64,000 nt of DNA from an uncultured Spirochaetota bacterium. GTDB lineage: Bacteria; Spirochaetota; Spirochaetia; SZUA-6; CAVTHK01. Below the pieces are notes generated by a model that searched no databases, had not been told where the DNA came from, and saw nothing but the letters and a program-made list of their open reading frames with translations. Location: positions 1-64,000 of the forward strand of contig CAVTHK010000015.1 of NCBI GenBank assembly GCA_963734495.1, read 5' to 3'. Made by a program: the position numbers and the translations under genes. How positions within the stretch are numbered: position 1 is the stretch's first letter; each line of letters begins with the position of its first letter. Positions 23,810 through 32,925 of this stretch are shown piece after piece.

Positions 23810-24203
23810 ATGACGGGTTTCAAGAAGTTCGCCGCCGCCGCCGCGATCGTCGCGGCCGTGGGTGCCGGCGGGTATGCTTCCGCTGGCCCGCGCGGCCGAT
23901 CAGGCCCCGGCGGCCCCGGCACTCAAGGACGGCACCTGGAAGGGCCCCAGGGTGCACACGTTCTACGGATTCGTGCAGGTCGACGCGGTGGTGTCGGAAG
24001 GCGCGCTCAAGGACGTCCAGGTCGGTGAGTACCCGGCTCACGACGGCACCTCCCGCCGGATCAACTCGATCGCGGTGCCCTACCTGGTCAAGTCGGCGGT
24101 CTCGGCGGGAAGCGCGCAGATCGACACGATCTCGGGCGCGACGATCACGAGCACCGCGTTCGTCAAGTCGCTCGACCAGGCGCTGTCGGAGGCGTGCAGA
24201 TGA
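23810..24203 (+). CDS. Extracytosolic FMN-binding (FMN_bind) domain protein (frameshift ~23880)
   Basis: Signal/anchor MTGFKKFAAAAAIVAAVGAG; DGTWKG..YGFVQV..INSIAVPYL..IDTISGATITS flavinylation motif. Confidence 0.88.
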
Positions 24204-25795
24204 GCGTGGCCGCTTCCGCACCTTCCCGCGCCGTCGGCTCCCGGACCCTCGCCCTGCCGCGTCTGGCCGGCATCGCGGCGCTGCTGGACCGGACGTCCAT
24301 GTACCGGCTGCTGCTGTACTACCTGGCGGGACTCCTCGCGGCCGCGATCGCGCTGAGCGGGTTCGGGCTGCTGTCCGCCTCGCCGCTGGACATCGCCGCG
24401 ACGATCCTCGTGCTGCTGGCGGCGAGCGTGCCGACCCAGCTGCTGCTCGCGCGGCTGTTTTCCGTGCCTTCGTCGCTCGAGCCGACCCTCATCACGGCCC
24501 TGATCCTGGCGCTGATCGCGAGCCCGGTTCCGCTGCTGACGAAGCCGCTGCAGGCTCTCCCGCTCGCCTTTGCCGGCTTCGCGGCCGTAGCATCGAAGTT
24601 CCTGATCGCCCCCAAAAAGCAGCACATCTTCAACCCGGCGGCATTCGGCATCTACGTCGCGGGCATGCTCTTCCACGAGTACTCGACGTGGTGGGTGGGC
24701 AGCGCGGCCCTGCTGCCGTTCGTGGCGCTCGGCGGCCTCCTGGTCGTCCGCAAGGTCGGCCGGCTGCGGATCGTCGGGCTGTTCCTCGCGGCGTTCACGG
24801 CGTTCCTCACCGGCTTCACGCTGCTGCAGGGCGTAGGCTTCAGCGACGCCGTCGCCGGCGTCGGGTTCGTGTTCCTGCGCACGGAGCTCGTGTTCTTTGC
24901 GGTCGTGATGCTCACGGAGCCGATCACTTCGCCCAAGCGGTTCGTCCCGCAGGCGCTGCACGCCTCGCTCGTCGCGCTGCTCATGCTGCCGCAGCTCACG
25001 GTGCTCGGAGTGACGTTCTCGCCCGAGGCGGCGCTGCTGGTGGGCAACCTGTTTTCGCGGATCGTGAGCCGCAGCCGCCGCTTCGTGCTCCCGTTCCGCG
25101 GCAGGCAGATGCTGGCCCGGGGCGTGTATACCTTCAATTTCGATATCCCGTCCGGGTTCCGCTATCGCACGGGCCAGTACATGGAGTGGGTGCTTGCTCT
25201 TGCGAAGGGCGACAGCCGCGGCAACCGTCGCTCCCTCACGATCTCCTCGGCGCCGACGGAGCCCGTGCTTTCGTTCGCCGTGCGCGTCCCCGAACGGCCC
25301 AGCGCGTACAAGCGCGCCCTCATGGAGATGGAGCCGGGCGCCACGATCGTCGCGGCGGAGCTTTCCGGCGACTTCGTTCTCCCGGCAGCGGCCGGCCGGC
25401 CGCTCGTGCTGATCGCGGGCGGGATCGGCATCACGCCCTTTCGCTCGATGCTCAGGGATCTCGTCGACCGGCGCGAGCGGCGCGACGTCACCTTGATCTA
25501 CTCGACCTTCGGGCCGGAGGAGATCGCATTCCGCGACGACCTCGAGCAGGCGAGGCGCGACCTGGGAGTCAAGGTGGTTTATACTCTGACCGATCCCGAC
25601 CGGGTGCCGCCGGGCTGGAACGGGCGGGTCGGATTCGTGGATGCGCGGCTCATCGCCGAGGAGGTCGCCGACTACGGGCGCAGCCTCTTCTACATCTCGG
25701 GTCCGCCGGCGATGATCAAGGGAGTCAAATCCGAGCTGCGGGCGCTCGGGGTGCGGAGGATAAAGACGGACTTCTTTCCCGGCTACTCCGTGTAG
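24200..25795 (+). CDS. RnfD/NqrB-like membrane domain fused to FNR-type FAD/NAD(P)-binding oxidoreductase
   Basis: KQHIFNPAAFG and MLTEPITSP (RnfD/NqrB-like); RRSLTISSAP, LIAGGIGITPFRSML, YISGPPAMI (FNR-like). Confidence 0.85.
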   Translation: MSVAASAPSRAVGSRTLALPRLAGIAALLDRTSMYRLLLYYLAGLLAAAIALSGFGLLSASPLDIAATILVLLAASVPTQLLLARLFSVPSSLEPTLITALILALIASPVPLLTKPLQALPLAFAGFAAVASKFLIAPKKQHIFNPAAFGIYVAGMLFHEYSTWWVGSAALLPFVALGGLLVVRKVGRLRIVGLFLAAFTAFLTGFTLLQGVGFSDAVAGVGFVFLRTELVFFAVVMLTEPITSPKRFVPQALHASLVALLMLPQLTVLGVTFSPEAALLVGNLFSRIVSRSRRFVLPFRGRQMLARGVYTFNFDIPSGFRYRTGQYMEWVLALAKGDSRGNRRSLTISSAPTEPVLSFAVRVPERPSAYKRALMEMEPGATIVAAELSGDFVLPAAAGRPLVLIAGGIGITPFRSMLRDLVDRRERRDVTLIYSTFGPEEIAFRDDLEQARRDLGVKVVYTLTDPDRVPPGWNGRVGFVDARLIAEEVADYGRSLFYISGPPAMIKGVKSELRALGVRRIKTDFFPGYSV

Positions 25796-25874
25796 CCTGC
25801 GTGCGGCGTGCGTGGGGCAGGGAGGACCAAGGGCGTCCCTCTGCCGCACGGGCAGAAAAGAAGAGGGAAGTGAC

Positions 25875-26582
25875 TTGGTCAAATTGAAGGAAAGTGTCAC
25901 CGCGGCGGCCCTGCTTGCGTTCTGCGCCGTAGGTTTTGCCGCCCCTGCCGCCCCGGCCGCCAGCGCCTCCGCCGCGGGCGCCGCGCGCGTCGTGCCGGCG
26001 GAGCAGGGTGCGTCGATAGCCGGCCGGCTGCTTCTCGTGAGCTATCCGGGGATTCCGATCGCGGAAACGCTGCCCCTGGCCTTGGAGAGCCGGCTGTCGG
26101 GCCAGGCTCTACCCGACTTCGGCCCGCCCGCCTCGCGCATGGACTCCGTTACGATCCCCGGCATCGCGGCGCGCAACAAGCTCGCGGACACTGCCCACTG
26201 GCTGCTGGGCGCTGCGACCGTCGTAGCCGGCGGCGTCACCGGGCTGTTGGGCTCGGAAGCCGGTGACGATGGTGAAGGCGGCGGCGGGGGCGGGGGCGGC
26301 TCGCTTCACCACACGTTCGGGTACGTCACCGCCGGTCTCGCCGCGGCCACGCTCCTGTCCGGCTTGTGGGCGCACCACGGCGACGTGGGCGTGTCGGACG
26401 GCCTGAGCGCAGCCAACGTGCACGCGCTGCTGGGCATCACCGGCGGCCTCATGATTGTGGCGACGCCGTTCGTGGCCGACGCCGGCGGAGGCGGCGACGA
26501 CGGCGGCGGGGGCCACGCCGCGCTGGGGATGGGCGGCGAGCTGCTCATGGGCATCGCAGTGGTCTGGCCGCTCGTATTCTGA
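25875..26582 (+). CDS. Hypothetical membrane protein with four His-bearing helices (cytochrome b561-like?)
   Basis: Signal peptide, then TAHWLLG / LHHTFG / VHALLG / GHAALG each opening a hydrophobic helix; Gly/Asp-rich loops. Confidence 0.6.
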   Translation: MVKLKESVTAAALLAFCAVGFAAPAAPAASASAAGAARVVPAEQGASIAGRLLLVSYPGIPIAETLPLALESRLSGQALPDFGPPASRMDSVTIPGIAARNKLADTAHWLLGAATVVAGGVTGLLGSEAGDDGEGGGGGGGGSLHHTFGYVTAGLAAATLLSGLWAHHGDVGVSDGLSAANVHALLGITGGLMIVATPFVADAGGGGDDGGGGHAALGMGGELLMGIAVVWPLVF

Positions 26583-26604
26583 GGTCGTGATTCTGAGGTC
26601 GTGA
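26576..26604 (+). repeat. 14-nt perfect tandem duplication over the stop codon
   Basis: ATTCTGAGGTCGTG-ATTCTGAGGTCGTG-A. Confidence 0.85.
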
Positions 26605-26693
26605 GGCGCGCCGGCGGGGAGGCGCGACCGCGGAGGGCGGCGCACGGGGAGGACCCGGCATCGCCCGCATGCGAAACAAAAGGAGAGACGGAG

Positions 26694-27592: not shown

Positions 27593-29397
27593 ATGGCGGG
27601 CAGAAAGACGAGAGGAACACGAAAGGTGAAGAAGGCCGCCGCCGCGCGGCCGCGCAGCGTCCGGGCAAAGGCCGCGCGAGCCGACAGGCGCGCCCGGCCC
27701 GCTCGAGCGCCGCGGGCGGCGGGGCGCTCGCGGCCGGCTGCCGCCCGCGCGAAGCCGGGGCCGAAGCTGGCGACGGCGCGGGTCGCGGTGGACGCCGGCA
27801 GGGGCGAGCCGCTGCGCCGCATCTGGCGCTACCTGGGCTACGACGAGCCCAACTACACGTACACCGAAAACGGCCGCGCGCTCCTGGCCAAGATGGGGTG
27901 CATGAACGACGCGCCATACTTTGTCCGCTGCCACTTCATCCTCTGCTCGGGCGACGGGACGGGCAGGCCCAAGTGGGGCTCGACCAACGTCTACACCGAG
28001 GATGCGTCCGGGACGGCCCGTGTACAGCTGGGACATCATCGACAGGATTCTCGACGCGATCCTCGAGACCGGCTGCACGCCTTTCGTGGAGCTCGGCTTC
28101 ATGCCCCAGGCGCTCACGACGGCGCCGGCGGGCATGCCGTATGACGACCCGCGCGCCGGCGGCTGGCGCTACCCGCCGCGGGACCACGAGAAGTGGAAGG
28201 GCCTCATCGCGGCGCTCGGCGAGCACTGCAGGCGCCGCTACGGCCTGAGCGCGAGGTGAGCCGCTGGTACTGGGAGCTGTGGAACGAGCCCGACATCTTC
28301 TACTGGCAGGGGGGAGTCGACGGTTACTGCCGCCTCTACGACTACACGGAGGCCGGCCTTCACTCCGTGCTGCCGCAGGCGATCCTGGGCGGGCCCGCCA
28401 CGACCAACCCGAGCCGCCCCCAGGCGGGCGAGTTCCTGCGCGGCGTTCCTCGAGCACTGCGCCGACGGCACCAACGCCGTCACCGGCGGCCGCGGCACGC
28501 GCCTCGATCTCGTGACGCTTCCACACCAAGGGCGGCGGCTACAAGGTCGACCATGCCGCCCCGAAGCAGACGCCGACGATGAACGCGCTGGTCGCGCACG
28601 CGGCCGAAGGCCTGCGCATCGTCTGCGCGGTTCCCCGCGTTTGCCGGGCTGGAGGTGAACCTCTCGGAGTGCGACCCCGACGGCTGGGCGGCGGGCAGCA
28701 AGCACGACAACCCGAACCTGAATTACCGCAACTCGGAGTACTACGCGAGCTACGTCGGGTGCACCGCCTGCAAGATGCTCGGACCTGGGGTCGCGGGGCG
28801 CCGCAACCGGATCGACGGCATGCTCACCTGGGCCTTCGAGTTCGAGGACCGGGAGTACTTCGAGGGGCTTGCGCACGCCTGAGCACCAACGGCATCGACA
28901 AGCCGGTGCTCAACGTCTTCCGCCTGTTGTCGCGGCTGGGCGGGACGCGGGTCGCGCTGGCCAGCGATCGCGCGCGCGACCCGCTCGCCAGCCCCGGCGG
29001 CGACTCTCCCGACAGTCCGCCTGACATCTCGGGGATCGCCGCCCGGGACCAGGGCGGCCGCGTGCAGGTCTTCCTGTGCAGCCACCATGACGACTGGGAC
29101 GTCAAGGCCGCCAGCCGCGTGGAAATCAGGGTTTCGGGCCTCGAGCCCGGGCTGAGATACCGCGCGGCCGTCACGACGGTCGACGACAAGACGGCGAGCT
29201 CGTACAGCGCCTGGGTGGCGATGGGCGAGCCTCAGAAGCCGAGCCGCGAGCAGAAGCAGGCGCTCGCCGAAGCGGCGCTGCTGCGGCCGCGAAAGCTCGC
29301 GGACGTGGTCGGGAGCAGGGCGGGGGGCTGCTCGGTCGAGCTCGTCCTCGCGAGCCATGCCGTATGCCTGGTCGAGCTGGAGCCGGTCCGCGGGTAG
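27593..29397 (+). CDS. Glycoside hydrolase family 39 (beta-xylosidase-like), several frameshifts
   Basis: IWRYLGYDEPNYTY, KWGSTNVYTED, PFVELGFMP, WYWELWNEPD (acid/base Glu), FHTKG, LSECDPDG, LTWAFEFE, TNGIDKPVLNVFRL. Confidence 0.87.
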
Positions 29398-29409
29398 GCT
29401 GCGGTTTCG

Positions 29410-29438
29410 TTGACATCTTGCGTCGGACCAAGCAGAAT
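29410..29438 (+). promoter_or_regulatory. Sigma70-type promoter of CUT1 ABC operon
   Basis: TTGACA-N17-CAGAAT. Confidence 0.55.
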
Positions 29439-29480
29439 GCGCCTGAGGCTGAGCCTCACGTCTCTCAGGAGGAGGGGTAG

Positions 29481-30774
29481 ATGACCAAGAGGAAGATAGC
29501 ATTCGTTCTCGCGGGGGCCCTGCTGGTGTGGGGCGCCGCGGCGAGCTTTGCGGAGGGTTCGAACGAAGGAACGGGGACGGCGACGGCCCAGAAGACCACG
29601 GTCCGCATGGCGACGTGGACCGCGGCGGCCAACCTTCCCATATGGCAGAAAGGCCCTCGACGTCTTTCAGGGCAAGAACCCTTCGATCCAGATGGTGATG
29701 GAGCACACGCCCGGCACCGCCTACTGGGACAAGCTGACGGTGGCCTATGCCGGAGGCACGCCGCCCGACATCATCTACACGGCGCCCGACACGGCGCAGC
29801 GGGTCGGGCACGCAGGGCATGCTGCTCGACCTGACGCCCTTCGTGAACCGCGACAAGACCGACATGTCGATGATCAACGCCGCGTCCGAGCAGCCGTACA
29901 AGTGGGACGGCAAGATGTGGGCCCTGGCGATCGTCAACGACACGCGCTACACGATCTACAACAAGACGCTGTTCAGGGCCGCCGGCCTCGCCGACCTGCC
30001 GCAGGTCTGGGATGACGCGAGCTTCACCATGGACGCCTTTCTCACCTACTGCCAGAAGCTGACGAACCCGTCCAGGCAGGAGTGGGGCTACGTGTTCGAG
30101 GGCAACGGCATCGGCCGCCCGGACCACGTGGCTGTTCGGCGCCGACTACTGGGACAACCAGGACAAGCCGACCAAGGCCGTCATGGACAGCCCGCAGGGG
30201 ATCGCCGGCCTGCAGTTCGTGCAGGACATGGTCTACCGCTACAAGGTGGCGCCGTCGACCTGCCGAGAACATGGGCGGCTCGGACCCGATGTTCCAGACG
30301 GGCAAGGTCGCGATGATCTGGGGCGGCTACAAGAGCGCGGCGGCGGTGCACAAGGACATCAAGGACTTCGAGTGGGACATCAGCACGATCGCGAAAGGCA
30401 CGCGGCGGATCTCGATCGTCAGCCCGCAGGCGTTCGCCATCATCTCGAAGTCCAAGGTGCCCGATCAGGCGTGGGCGTTCGTCAAGTTCGCCGGCTTCGA
30501 GGAAGGCCAGGAGATCCTCACCCAGAGCACGTCGATGCCGGCCAACCTCAAGATCGACTTCGACAAGGTCTCGCCGCTCAAGCCCTGGCAGAACAAGCTC
30601 CTCCAGGACGGGCTCAAGACGGGCCGGACCGAGATCCCGCACCCGAACGTCAAGCCCCAGATGATCACGATCATCAACGAGGAGATGGACCAGCTCATGG
30701 CGAAGAAGAAGACCGGCGAGCAGGCCGCCAAGGCCATGGCGAGCCGGATGAACGAGATCTTCGCCAAGCAGTAG
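29481..30774 (+). CDS. Carbohydrate ABC transporter substrate-binding protein (CUT1), frameshifted
   Basis: Signal ending FAEGSNE (spirochaete-type FAxGxxE); YWDKLTVAYAGGTPPDI, IYNKTLF, FQTGKVAM. Confidence 0.88.
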
Positions 30775-31733
30775 ATGTCGGGAGCTGACGGCAGCCGCCG
30801 GGGCGGTACCCCGGCGGCGCAGGCCCGCGCCCGCGCGGCCGCAACCGTCCCGAGCGCACCGAGGCGATCTGGTTCTATGTCCTGATCTCGCCGTGGCTGA
30901 TCGGGTTTCTGGTGTTCGCCCTCGGCCCGATCGTGTCGTCGCTGTACCTGAGCTTCACGCAGTACGACATGGCCAACCCGGCCAAGTGGATCGGGCTGGC
31001 GAACTACAAGCAGATGGCGGCCGACCCGCTGGTCTGGCAGTCGCTCAAGGTCACGGGCCTGTGGGTGTTAGGCGGGCTGCCGCTGCGGCTGGTGGTCGCC
31101 TTCTTCTTCGCGATCCTGATGAACCAGCGCATGCCCGCCAGCGGCTTCTTCCGCACCGTCTACTACCTGCCGTCGGTCGTCTCCGGCGTCGCGGTCGCGA
31201 TCGTGTGGATGTGGCTCCTGCAGCCGCAGTTCGGCATCGTGAACTGGTTCCTGCGCATGGTCGGCCTCGAGGGCCCGCGCTGGCTCGCGAGCCCGGACTG
31301 GGCCCTTCCCGGCTTCATCCTCATGAGCCTCTGGAACACCGGCGCGACGATGGTGATCTTTCTCGCGGGGCTGCAGGGCATCCCGACCGATTTCTACGAG
31401 GCGGCCGAGATCGACGGGGCGGGCAAGCCGCGGCAGTTCTTCGCGATCACGATCCCGCTGATGACGCCGGTGATCCTCTTCAACCTGGTCATGGGCATCA
31501 TCAGCGCCTTCCAGGTGTTCACGCAGGCCTTCGTGATGACCAACGGGGGCCCCGCCAACGCGACGCTCTTCTACATGCTGTACCTCTACCGCGTGGCCTT
31601 CCAGTACAGCCAGATGGGCTACGGCTCCGCGATGGCGTGGGTGCTGTTCCTGATCGTGCTCGTGCTGACCCTGCTCGTGTTCCGTTCCTCGGGACGCTGG
31701 GTCTACTACGAAGGCGGGGTCAAGGGAAGATGA
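30775..31733 (+). CDS. Carbohydrate ABC transporter permease (MalF-like)
   Basis: SPWLIGF, FFRTVYYLPSV, FLAGLQGIPTDFYEAAEIDGA (EAA loop), MGYGSAMAW. Confidence 0.92.
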
Positions 31734-32596
31734 AGGCAGCCACCTGGGGGCGCGCCGGTGCGCGGCAGTGCGACGCTGCTGTTCCGCGCCTTCGCGTTCT
31801 TCGTCGTGTGCGCCGGCGCGCTGTCGATGCTGGTGCCCTTCTTCTGGATGCTCGTCACCTCGCTGAAACCGCCCGGGGAGGTGTTCCTCTACCCGCCGCG
31901 CTGGTGGCCGAGCCAGGTGCGCTTCGAGAACTACAGGGAAGCGCTGACGGCCCTGCCCTTCGGGCAGTGGTACCTGAACACGATCTTCATCACGGTGGTG
32001 AGCACGCTCGGCGACGTCGTCACGGCGTCGCTGGTCGGCTACGCGTTCGCCCGCCTGCGGGCGCCGGGGCGCGACTTCCTCTTCATGCTGGTGATCAGCA
32101 CGATGCTCCTGCCGCACCAGGTCACGATGATCCCGGTGTTCCTGATCTTCAGGAGCATGCACGCGATCGACACCTTCGTGCCGCTCATCGCTGCGGAGCT
32201 GGCTCGGCGGGGGAGCCTTCAACATATTCCTGTGCCGTCAGTTCTTTCTCACGCTGCCGCTCGAGCTCGACGACGCCGCCCGCATCGACGGGTGCGGGGT
32301 GGTCGGGATCTACTGGCGGATCATCCTGCCGCTGTCGAAGCCGGTGCTGGCCGCGGTCACGGCGTTCGCTGCGGTCGCCAAGTGGAACGAGTTCCTCGAC
32401 CCCGTCGATCTACCTGCAGTCGCGGGCCAAGTACGTCGTGTCGATCGGGCTGCGGCTGTTCCAGGACTACCAGGCCACCTCGTACCACTGGCTCATGGCC
32501 GCCGCCGTGGTCACGATGCTCCCGTGCCTCGTCGTCTTCTTCGTCGCGCAGAAGTCGTTCGTGCAGGGGATCGCCACCACCGGCCTCAAGGGGTAG
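31730..32596 (+). CDS. Carbohydrate ABC transporter permease (MalG-like), frameshifted
   Basis: [52 protein letters not shown]. Confidence 0.9.
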
Positions 32597-32610
32597 CCGG
32601 GGCAGGCCGC

Positions 32611-32786
32611 CGCTGCGGGACCGGGCGCCCGCCGCGTCCGGGCCCACCCGGCCGCGGCTCGCCGGCTCCGCGCAGGCCCCGCGTACTCGCGGGGGTGGCT
32701 TTCGGGCTCCGTCCCGGACCTGGCCCGGACGCTTCGGCATTCCCTCCGCTGCGCTGCGGGACCAGGGCGCCAGGCGCGTCCGGGCC
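32611..32786. repeat. GC-rich intergenic direct and inverted repeat element
   Basis: CGCTGCGGGACC(A)GGGCGCC..CGCGTCCGGGCC at 32611-32644 and 32752-32786; inverted GGCCCGGACGC at 32722-32732. Confidence 0.65.
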
Positions 32787-32801
32787 GCGGCATCCCGGAC
32801 C

Positions 32802-32830
32802 TTGACAGCTGCAAAAGCCGCGGGTATATC
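32802..32830 (+). promoter_or_regulatory. Sigma70-type promoter of tRNA-Tyr
   Basis: TTGACA-N17-TATATC, 12 nt before the tRNA. Confidence 0.6.
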
Positions 32831-32842
32831 TTGCGCGCCTAT

Positions 32843-32925
32843 GGGGAGATTCCCGAGTGGTCAAAGGGGGCAGACTGTAAATCTGTTGGCTTTCGCCTTC
32901 GAAGGTTCGAATCCTTCTCTCCCCA
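32843..32925 (+). tRNA. tRNA-Tyr(GTA), no encoded CCA
   Basis: GGGGAGA/TCTCCCC acceptor, CCGAGTGGTCAAAGG D-arm, GCAGA-CTGTAAA-TCTGT anticodon arm, long variable arm, GAAGG-TTCGAAT-CCTTC. Confidence 0.97.

Follow-up and report, generated by a model that had tools for sequence, protein, structure and literature searches.

The window analysed here is a stretch of 64,000 nucleotides from an uncultured Spirochaetota bacterium (contig CAVTHK010000015.1 of assembly GCA_963734495.1). Between a gene for a sigma-54 response regulator and one for an HpcH aldolase, it carries a locus of three genes on the + strand, delimited from the list of open reading frames and Pfam matches and numbered 1 to 3 below. 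Judged by sequence, genes 1 and 2 are the known Nqr/Rnf-like flavinylation system, while gene 3, an accessory gene for a cytochrome-like protein, and the plausible use of an ApbE acting in trans appear to be what is new. The features of the locus are as follows (FMN, flavin mononucleotide; FAD, flavin adenine dinucleotide; NAD(P)H, reduced nicotinamide adenine dinucleotide (phosphate)).

23810..24203, + strand: gene 1, secreted FMN-binding (RnfG/NqrC-like) carrier with a signal-peptide-like N-terminus (PF04205)
24123..24143, + strand: flavinylation motif D-T-I-S-G-A-T of gene 1, predicted FMN-bearing Thr codon at 24141-24143 (from the sequence)
24200..25795, + strand: gene 2, NqrB/RnfD-like membrane domain (about residues 30-290) and cytoplasmic FNR-type FAD/NAD(P)H domain (Pfam)
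25875..26582, + strand: gene 3, signal peptide, low-confidence linker and four-helix bundle, putative di-haem b561-like protein (AlphaFold, His/Gly pattern)
26196..26516, + strand: candidate haem ligands of gene 3, H108 (26196), H145 (26307), H183 (26421) and H214 (26514)
26373, + strand: fifth histidine of gene 3, H167 (alignment)

The Nqr/Rnf-like core and its missing apbE

Gene 1 matches the Pfam family FMN_bind (PF04205) above the cut-off (E-value 2.2e-8). The ATG at 23810 and the FMN_bind domain are in different frames, separated by a one-base frameshift near 23855-23868 that an earlier note on this DNA had missed. The frameshift is probably an assembly error, since a contig from a related organism spans 23816-24193 in 377 bases for 378, with one gap, and other genes of the window are also split across frames. 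Two of them, located at 27750-32900 and coding for an ABC sugar transporter and what is probably a glycosidase, seem to be split in this way, which points to indel errors in the assembly. The signal-like N-terminus was read by eye across the frameshift. The flavinylation consensus given in the accessible part of PMC12052999 is D-x-x-[S/T]-G-A-[S/T], and in an alignment of 50 gene-1 homologues the G-A of the motif is invariant and the T at least 90% conserved. The same genome has four further FMN_bind genes (L002, L003, L005 and L006), of which two are at Rnf-type loci, one apparently stands alone and the fourth is lipoprotein-like with two motifs.

The earlier note had described a motif protein coupled through ATGA to an RnfD/NqrB-FNR fusion, and this description holds. 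The stop of gene 1 and the start of gene 2 overlap at 24200-24203, and gene 2 (531 residues) contains NAD_binding_1 (PF00175) above the cut-off (E 4.6e-17) together with a weak match to NQR2_RnfD_RnfE (PF03116) below it (E 0.004), the latter family being annotated in many full-length homologues. Out of 8000 candidates scored, 2383 are homologous to gene 2 at E<=1e-100, and the named close homologues are labelled Spirochaetia. A motif scan over the first 300 residues found the ApbE motif in none of 45 rows of the gene 2 family (one row being a C-terminal fragment). The FAD motif of gene 2 (window 25233-25241, residues about 344-347) reads R-S-L-T, compared with R-Y-F-T in the family and R-S-F-T in the linked relatives discussed below.

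The NQR/RNF-like system has been defined by a PF03116-PF00175 fusion at most five genes away from an exported FMN-binding or ApbE gene, a rule that gave 127 clusters (Méheust 2021, PMC8238504, as far as accessible). In the passages available from Huang 2024 (PMC11334425), it is modelled as two subunits with a proposed one-way export from NAD(P)H, and its membrane domain is without the NqrB/RnfD flavinylation site. Such systems are described mostly from Actinobacteria and the candidate phyla radiation. Genes 1 and 2 show the fusion architecture, an FMN-binding gene overlapping the start of the fusion and no flavinylated Thr in the membrane domain, and on this basis are assigned to the system; an apbE in the cluster is not required, because the published rule accepts an exported FMN-binding gene instead. 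Membership in a full, six-subunit Rnf/Nqr operon was considered and rejected, as RnfA/E (NqrD/E), RnfB/C or NqrA/F are absent from the locus and only three genes lie between the response regulator and the aldolase. The RnfD, RnfG and Rnf-Nqr membrane genes of the window genome are found at two other loci.

The surroundings of 67 related fusion loci were compared over flanks of 1.5-5 kb, some of them cut by contig ends. A gene-1 homologue is present at 64 of these loci and an apbE match at 63, nearly always between carrier and fusion, while there is no apbE in the window, as the earlier note had stated for the module. At three loci (L043, L052 and L070) carrier and fusion are adjacent with no apbE match, and the idea that an apbE-less pair is unique to the window was rejected. 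The novel system suggested in the earlier note is supported in part: neither of the outcomes named there as refuting it came up, as the genome does have an apbE and the third gene stands behind the fusion in a second organism, but the core is published, its definition needs no apbE in the cluster and the third gene is an accessory. In one case among the 67 (L070, which has two carriers), a motif scan found a DUF2231 membrane gene (L070:711-1250) upstream of the apbE-less locus.

The earlier note had also advised looking for apbE elsewhere in the genome. A single PF02424 match is found, at C11:764036-764872, and the option of a genome devoid of apbE was dropped. The C11 ApbE has a lipobox-like N-terminus (lipoprotein type), and its locus (L100:7938-13118) also codes for a polyprenyl synthase, an Ndh2-like protein that ends in a membrane tail and, as identified by eye, a Rex-like regulator. 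The arrangement resembles a flavin-based electron-export locus. The cassette ApbEs with a visible start (L008-L011 and L028-L090), on the other hand, begin about 6 residues before the domain and have no signal peptide by eye, although their substrate looks exported. The absence of apbE from the junction between genes 1 and 2 is not due to an assembly gap, because a contig about 91% identical bridges it. With a gap at the locus excluded and one lipoprotein-type apbE in the genome, flavinylation of gene 1 in trans by the C11 ApbE is plausible; a further copy of apbE may be absent from the assembly of this genome, which is 83% complete. One ApbE would serve all FMN_bind genes of this genome.

A putative b561-like cytochrome behind the fusion

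Gene 3 starts with TTG at 25875, 79 bases behind gene 2, in agreement with the four-His gene placed about 80 bp after the fusion in the earlier note. It codes for seven histidines; four of them are near-invariant throughout the family, and close relatives also share a fifth. Scans found no sigma-70 promoter at the locus and no terminator-like site between genes 2 and 3. A 10-base direct repeat at window 26581-26606 takes in the stop codon of gene 3, and a related contig is 30 bases shorter there. Searches against Pfam and NCBIfam returned no family for gene 3, the ESM Atlas gave only unnamed clusters at 0.89-0.94 with no usable family, and no longer fused forms were seen among 8000 candidates (which is weak evidence). 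Family searches yielded 14 close relatives and 42 representatives, and 55 rows were aligned. Histidine occupies position 108 in 53, position 145 in 52, position 183 in all and position 214 in 53 of the 55 rows. In the AlphaFold model, with a core pLDDT (predicted local distance difference test) of 91.5, an N-terminal helix and a loose linker precede four helices (102-127, 141-167, 179-203 and 212-234), each of which opens near one conserved histidine. The N-terminal stretch is hydrophobic in 49/55 rows, and the helices are Gly/Ala-rich with low hydropathy.

According to the accessible part of PMC10691727, the b561 core is made of four helices whose histidines H1/H3 bind the outer and H2/H4 the inner haem, and small residues stand at fixed distances from them. 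Four consecutive helices with four conserved histidines are likewise predicted for gene 3, and helix order suggests the same sidedness. Several of the b561 markers are present in the family (Gly at H3+4 in 48/55 and at H4+4 in 52/55, a small residue at H3+18 in 51/55 and Asn at H3-2 in 44/55, for a helix Gly background of 15%), and H1+7 is Thr, Ala or Ser. Nine of the 55 members match each b561 Pfam family (PF03188/PF01292) at E<=0.1, the best at 6.5e-4, and two Pfam-positive b561 proteins are among the sequences picked up with the wider family profile. Alignment by hhalign to 17 Pfam-positive b561 proteins gives probabilities of 44-55%, with H3 and H4 in register. The sole PDB sequence match up to E 10 is the plant b561 4o6y (E 0.29), which also has the top template-modelling (TM) score among the Foldseek matches listed (0.67, with a non-significant E-value); neither gene-3 model has a Foldseek match at E<=0.001. 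In a VIA structural alignment, the core of gene 3 is superposed on residues 41-178 of 4o6y and 41-180 of Dcytb (Z 9.0-9.3, with a root-mean-square deviation of 3.5 and 126 aligned at Z 9.3). The histidine pattern and the predicted fold together make it quite likely that gene 3 is a di-haem cytochrome. The putative haem protein of the earlier note gains support from the four histidines, the b561 markers and the likeness to 4o6y, with b561 scores that are all non-significant.

The fifth histidine, H167, is conserved in 51/55 close rows and in only 28/55 of a wider set. It was rejected as a family-defining feature, being His in only part of the operon-linked and solitary members. A distant gene-3 relative (L117:674-1788) has the best Pfam b561 score seen (E 2.9e-5) and a YceI gene behind it, a pairing also found in yceJ-yceI of E. 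coli.

Gene 3 beside the fusion and in a second operon

The order of fusion and gene 3 recurs in L094, one of four metagenome contigs compared for close gene-3 relatives, where a fusion with a 74% identical FNR domain ends 22 bases before a gene 3 that is 56% identical. Moreover, the two fusions closest to gene 2 (88% and 71%) and two close gene-3 relatives come from the same source and have equally sized longest contigs (6038 and 12159 bases). These pairs, P0017/P0002 and P0018/P0003, are probably further fusion-gene 3 neighbours, but as they rest on contigs of equal size and a shared source they suggest adjacency and do not establish it. In L097, only 70 bases are available upstream of a gene-3 relative. 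The four fusions linked to gene 3 form one clade (support 1.0), so that the link is real but of single origin, and gene 3 is an accessory gene restricted to a single subclade of the fusions. In G001, a genome of the same genus, both a full-length fusion and synteny with the window are lacking, and there is only a distant solitary gene-3 relative. Among sequencing runs, no RNA run is listed as containing the organism, and four DNA runs contain only small shares of relatives.

A wider gene-3 profile was used for searching 300 same-class genomes, which gave matches in 28 genomes besides that of the window (30 of the 33 matches, including the window's own, were fetched). Three of these genomes had contributed to the profile, and two matches are Pfam-positive b561 proteins. 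In 16 of the 28 genomes (10 genera, 6 families), two genes come after the gene-3 relative in the same orientation, the first for a secreted protein (about 170 residues) and the second for a membrane protein (about 425 residues):

L098:8169-10563, L099, L181-L193 and L195, 16 same-class genomes: second operon, consisting of a gene-3 relative, a carrier and a ferric-reductase-FNR fusion

An in-frame stop interrupts one of the carriers, a truncation affects one conduit, and a contig ends within one gene-3 relative. A divergent two-component pair lies upstream of the operon in five of the 16 genomes. The membrane protein has four histidines invariant in 16/16, in two pairs spaced 14 and 14, as well as FAD/NAD domains, and PF01794 is found below the cut-off (5/16 at E<=0.1), from which it appears to be a ferric-reductase/MsrQ-like conduit fused to FNR. 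The carrier has the motif D-x-x-[STA]-[AS]-[AS]-[ST] in 14/14 aligned sequences, without the consensus Gly. A Gly-to-Ala exchange in the flavinylation motif lowers flavinylation and does not abolish it, according to the passages available from PMC12052999. At one Rnf locus of the window genome, the FMN_bind gene reads D-A-I-T-A-A-T. No trusted Pfam family or PDB sequence match was found for the carrier, which is weakly flavodoxin-like (hhalign 29%, E 6e-4, with E 0.55 for the control).

The apbE search gave no match in the 17/17 fetched second-operon regions, which were not scanned for FMN_bind. A single apbE, in every case outside the fetched flanks, is present in 15 of the 16 genomes; the remaining genome is 64% complete. 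With no apbE nearby, this operon would have escaped the published cluster rule. In a reverse search with the carrier, 30 of 42 matches were fetched, and carrier and conduit occur together at 30/30 of these same-class loci. At L236 and L237 a rubredoxin-like/DUF2231-like membrane protein is encoded two genes upstream of the carrier-conduit pair, and at L239 directly upstream of it, behind cytochrome bd subunit II. A solitary gene-3 relative at L108:11-2034 is divergent from a ferric-reductase-FNR gene.

The second operon is apparently undescribed and provides the strongest support for gene 3 as a module partner. In a midpoint-rooted tree of 55 gene-3 proteins, the window clade nests within the operon-linked clade (bootstrap 82, 97 and 100), its nearest sisters being solitary members. 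One gene-3 relative, P0176 (L168:1339-2028), carries its own D-S-V-S-G-A-T in the linker just before the first helix. A looser match to the flavinylation motif, inside a loop, occurs in one of the 65 rows of the wider gene-3 alignment. About 600 bases beyond the own-motif relative (L168:1339-2028 and L194:2653-3153) there is a lipoprotein-like gene that reads D-A-V-T-T-A-S.

Electron path, alternatives and known systems

From the observed domain content, motifs, gene order and distribution, we infer each step of the following electron path. The FNR domain of gene 2 would oxidise NAD(P)H, and the NqrB/RnfD-like domain, with its non-covalent flavin site, would lead the electrons across the membrane to the FMN on the Thr of gene 1, as in the published model. 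This FMN would be attached in the periplasm by the C11 lipoprotein ApbE in trans, in place of the signal-less cassette ApbE. Gene 3 would be b561-like with its N-terminus outside, H108/H183 holding the outer and H145/H214 the inner haem. The repeated association of the genes suggests that the outer haem accepts electrons from the flavin carrier, which we consider probable, with some reserve. The inner haem may then return them to a membrane acceptor, most likely quinone; this onward transfer is favoured because both haem pairs are conserved. Gene 3 would in this way add a return arm to a one-way conduit, giving a semicircular path as in Nqr and Rnf, though one that pumps no ions. The whole chain, with gene 3 as an accessory di-haem cytochrome that takes electrons from the periplasmic carrier and passes them on to quinone, is put forward tentatively, as a possibility and not as a probable account. 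Viewed more broadly, gene 3 may belong to a signal-peptide-bearing b561 family that is a modular partner of flavin-based NAD(P)H export, heading a spirochaetal operon, re-attached to an Nqr/Rnf-like conduit in the window lineage and with its own flavin site in one relative, all three forms depending on a distant housekeeping ApbE. This picture comes close to being probable.

A number of observations weigh against this reading. Its weakest step is the return through the inner haem to a membrane acceptor, and no finding made here bears directly on which way the electrons flow or where they end. As for the haem protein, the window protein has no Pfam b561 match, no b561 match to gene 3 is statistically significant, the Gly at H4+18 of b561 is absent from the family, the HMMER alignment of the gene-3 profile to 4o6y is off by one helix, and b561 is outscored by generic four-helix bundles (Z 9.3 vs up to 12.9). 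The tree rests on 122 columns. As for the partnership, which the earlier note had proposed and for which L094 speaks, gene 3 is absent from all 67 canonical fusion loci and was not found in four same-order genomes having the apbE cassette. The close gene-3 relatives at L095 and L096 are without a fusion, and among 400 genomes sampled from the phylum the gene-3 family is present in 16 and the fusion in none, many family members having no partner. The linked fusion-gene 3 loci are kin and not independent events. Gene 3 is optional in the second operon too, as 14 further carrier loci (L236-L249) have the conduit adjacent in 14/14 and a gene-3 relative within 1.5 kb in 0/14.

The same distribution would fit a gene 3 that is a mere passenger, that is, a free-standing b561-like or four-helix protein that landed once behind the Nqr/Rnf-like pair and was inherited, while the pair reduces another periplasmic acceptor. 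The single clade of linked fusions, the lack of gene 3 at canonical loci and the many solitary members, nearest sister branches included, are all in line with this, and the 79-base gap allows separate expression. Yet the order of fusion and gene 3 has been kept down to 74% (fusion) and 56% (gene 3) identity, there is no terminator-like site between the two, the family heads an analogous, non-homologous operon in 16 genomes and one member has a flavinylation motif of its own. We regard the passenger as rather improbable. Gene 3 could also be a terminal reductase that hands electrons from the carrier or the membrane to an Fe(III) or Cu(II) chelate outside, with H167 as a metal site comparable to His108 of Dcytb. 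In Dcytb, ferric reductase activity depends on the His at H2+22, which is a metal ligand (PMC10691727, accessible part), and in 50/50 rows having both, the distance from the second haem His to H167 is exactly 22 residues. It is His in 4/4 fusion-linked proteins but in only 8/15 operon-linked and 5/23 solitary members, and 22 residues are also just the length of one helix. Some Nqr/Rnf-like and MsrQ-like clusters do include iron transporters (Méheust 2021, PMC8238504, in the passages available), whereas no iron-transporter gene adjoining the cassette was recognised among the window's open reading frames (of which two neighbours were scanned with Pfam). The inner haem would be superfluous for electrons coming from outside. 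A terminal reductase is considered unlikely.

A parallel input that feeds the carrier from quinol, or an electron relay in the outer membrane, would agree with the hydrophobic N-terminal stretch and with the Gly/Ala-rich helices of low hydropathy described above. However, quinol-to-FMN transfer is uphill at usual potentials, and helical outer-membrane proteins are rare. Moreover, b561 cores with the N-terminus outside are known in ordinary membranes from CYBDOM proteins (PMC10691727, accessible part), and we consider both variants very unlikely. The return of electrons from the flavin carrier through gene 3 is retained as the preferred, if tentative, reading. The Nqr/Rnf-like complex occurs widely, but the published passages available present its function as proposed and do not say what accepts its electrons. 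The locus offers a concrete candidate for the acceptor in a three-gene unit that is small and easily expressed. If the modular b561 family is real, it would supply the missing acceptor of the complex and define a minimal redox loop of three proteins, and the flavodoxin-like carrier of the second operon would be a new substrate class of ApbE. The lipoprotein ApbE that this locus seems to use, as opposed to the signal-less cassette form, would fix where the flavin gets attached. The carrier-conduit operon points to a class of flavinylated proteins and a cytochrome family that surveys anchored on apbE would overlook. A literature search, which took in few subscription journals, found no published unit of flavinylation or ApbE with b561, nor MsrQ-like extracellular electron transfer in Spirochaetia.

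Compared with known systems, the locus shares with the NQR/RNF-like system an FMN_bind subunit, a PF03116-PF00175 fusion with no ApbE motif in the membrane domain and a predicted one-way NAD(P)H export; it differs in being without the usual signal-less apbE in the operon and in having a third, cytochrome-like gene. The second operon resembles the MsrQ-like system (Méheust 2021) in that a ferric-reductase-type membrane domain with two His pairs is fused to an NAD-binding domain and the neighbouring gene codes for a secreted protein whose motif is flavinylation-like. Its PF01794 match is however below the cut-off, its carrier belongs neither to FMN_bind nor to any other Pfam family, and there is no apbE nearby. 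With cytochrome b561 (PF03188; AtCytb561-B, 4o6y; human Dcytb, 5zlg), gene 3 has in common the four consecutive His-opening helices and the small residues at H3+4, H4+4 and H3+18, to which its close relatives alone add the His at H2+22. It falls below every family cut-off, lacks the H4+18 Gly and has a cleavable-looking signal peptide and a linker rather than the first transmembrane helix (TM1) or a DOMON domain, and its haem is a prediction. The DUF4405 proteins are flavinylation-associated cytochromes for which haem b has been demonstrated (Huang 2024, PMC11334425, passages available). They are, as gene 3 putatively is, four-His membrane cytochromes found through gene association with flavinylation, and only one of the 55 gene-3 members matches them (E 0.09). 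They differ by their six helices, their MsrQ/PepSY-like fold and their occurrence in apbE clusters without a conduit, while gene 3 accompanies a complete one.

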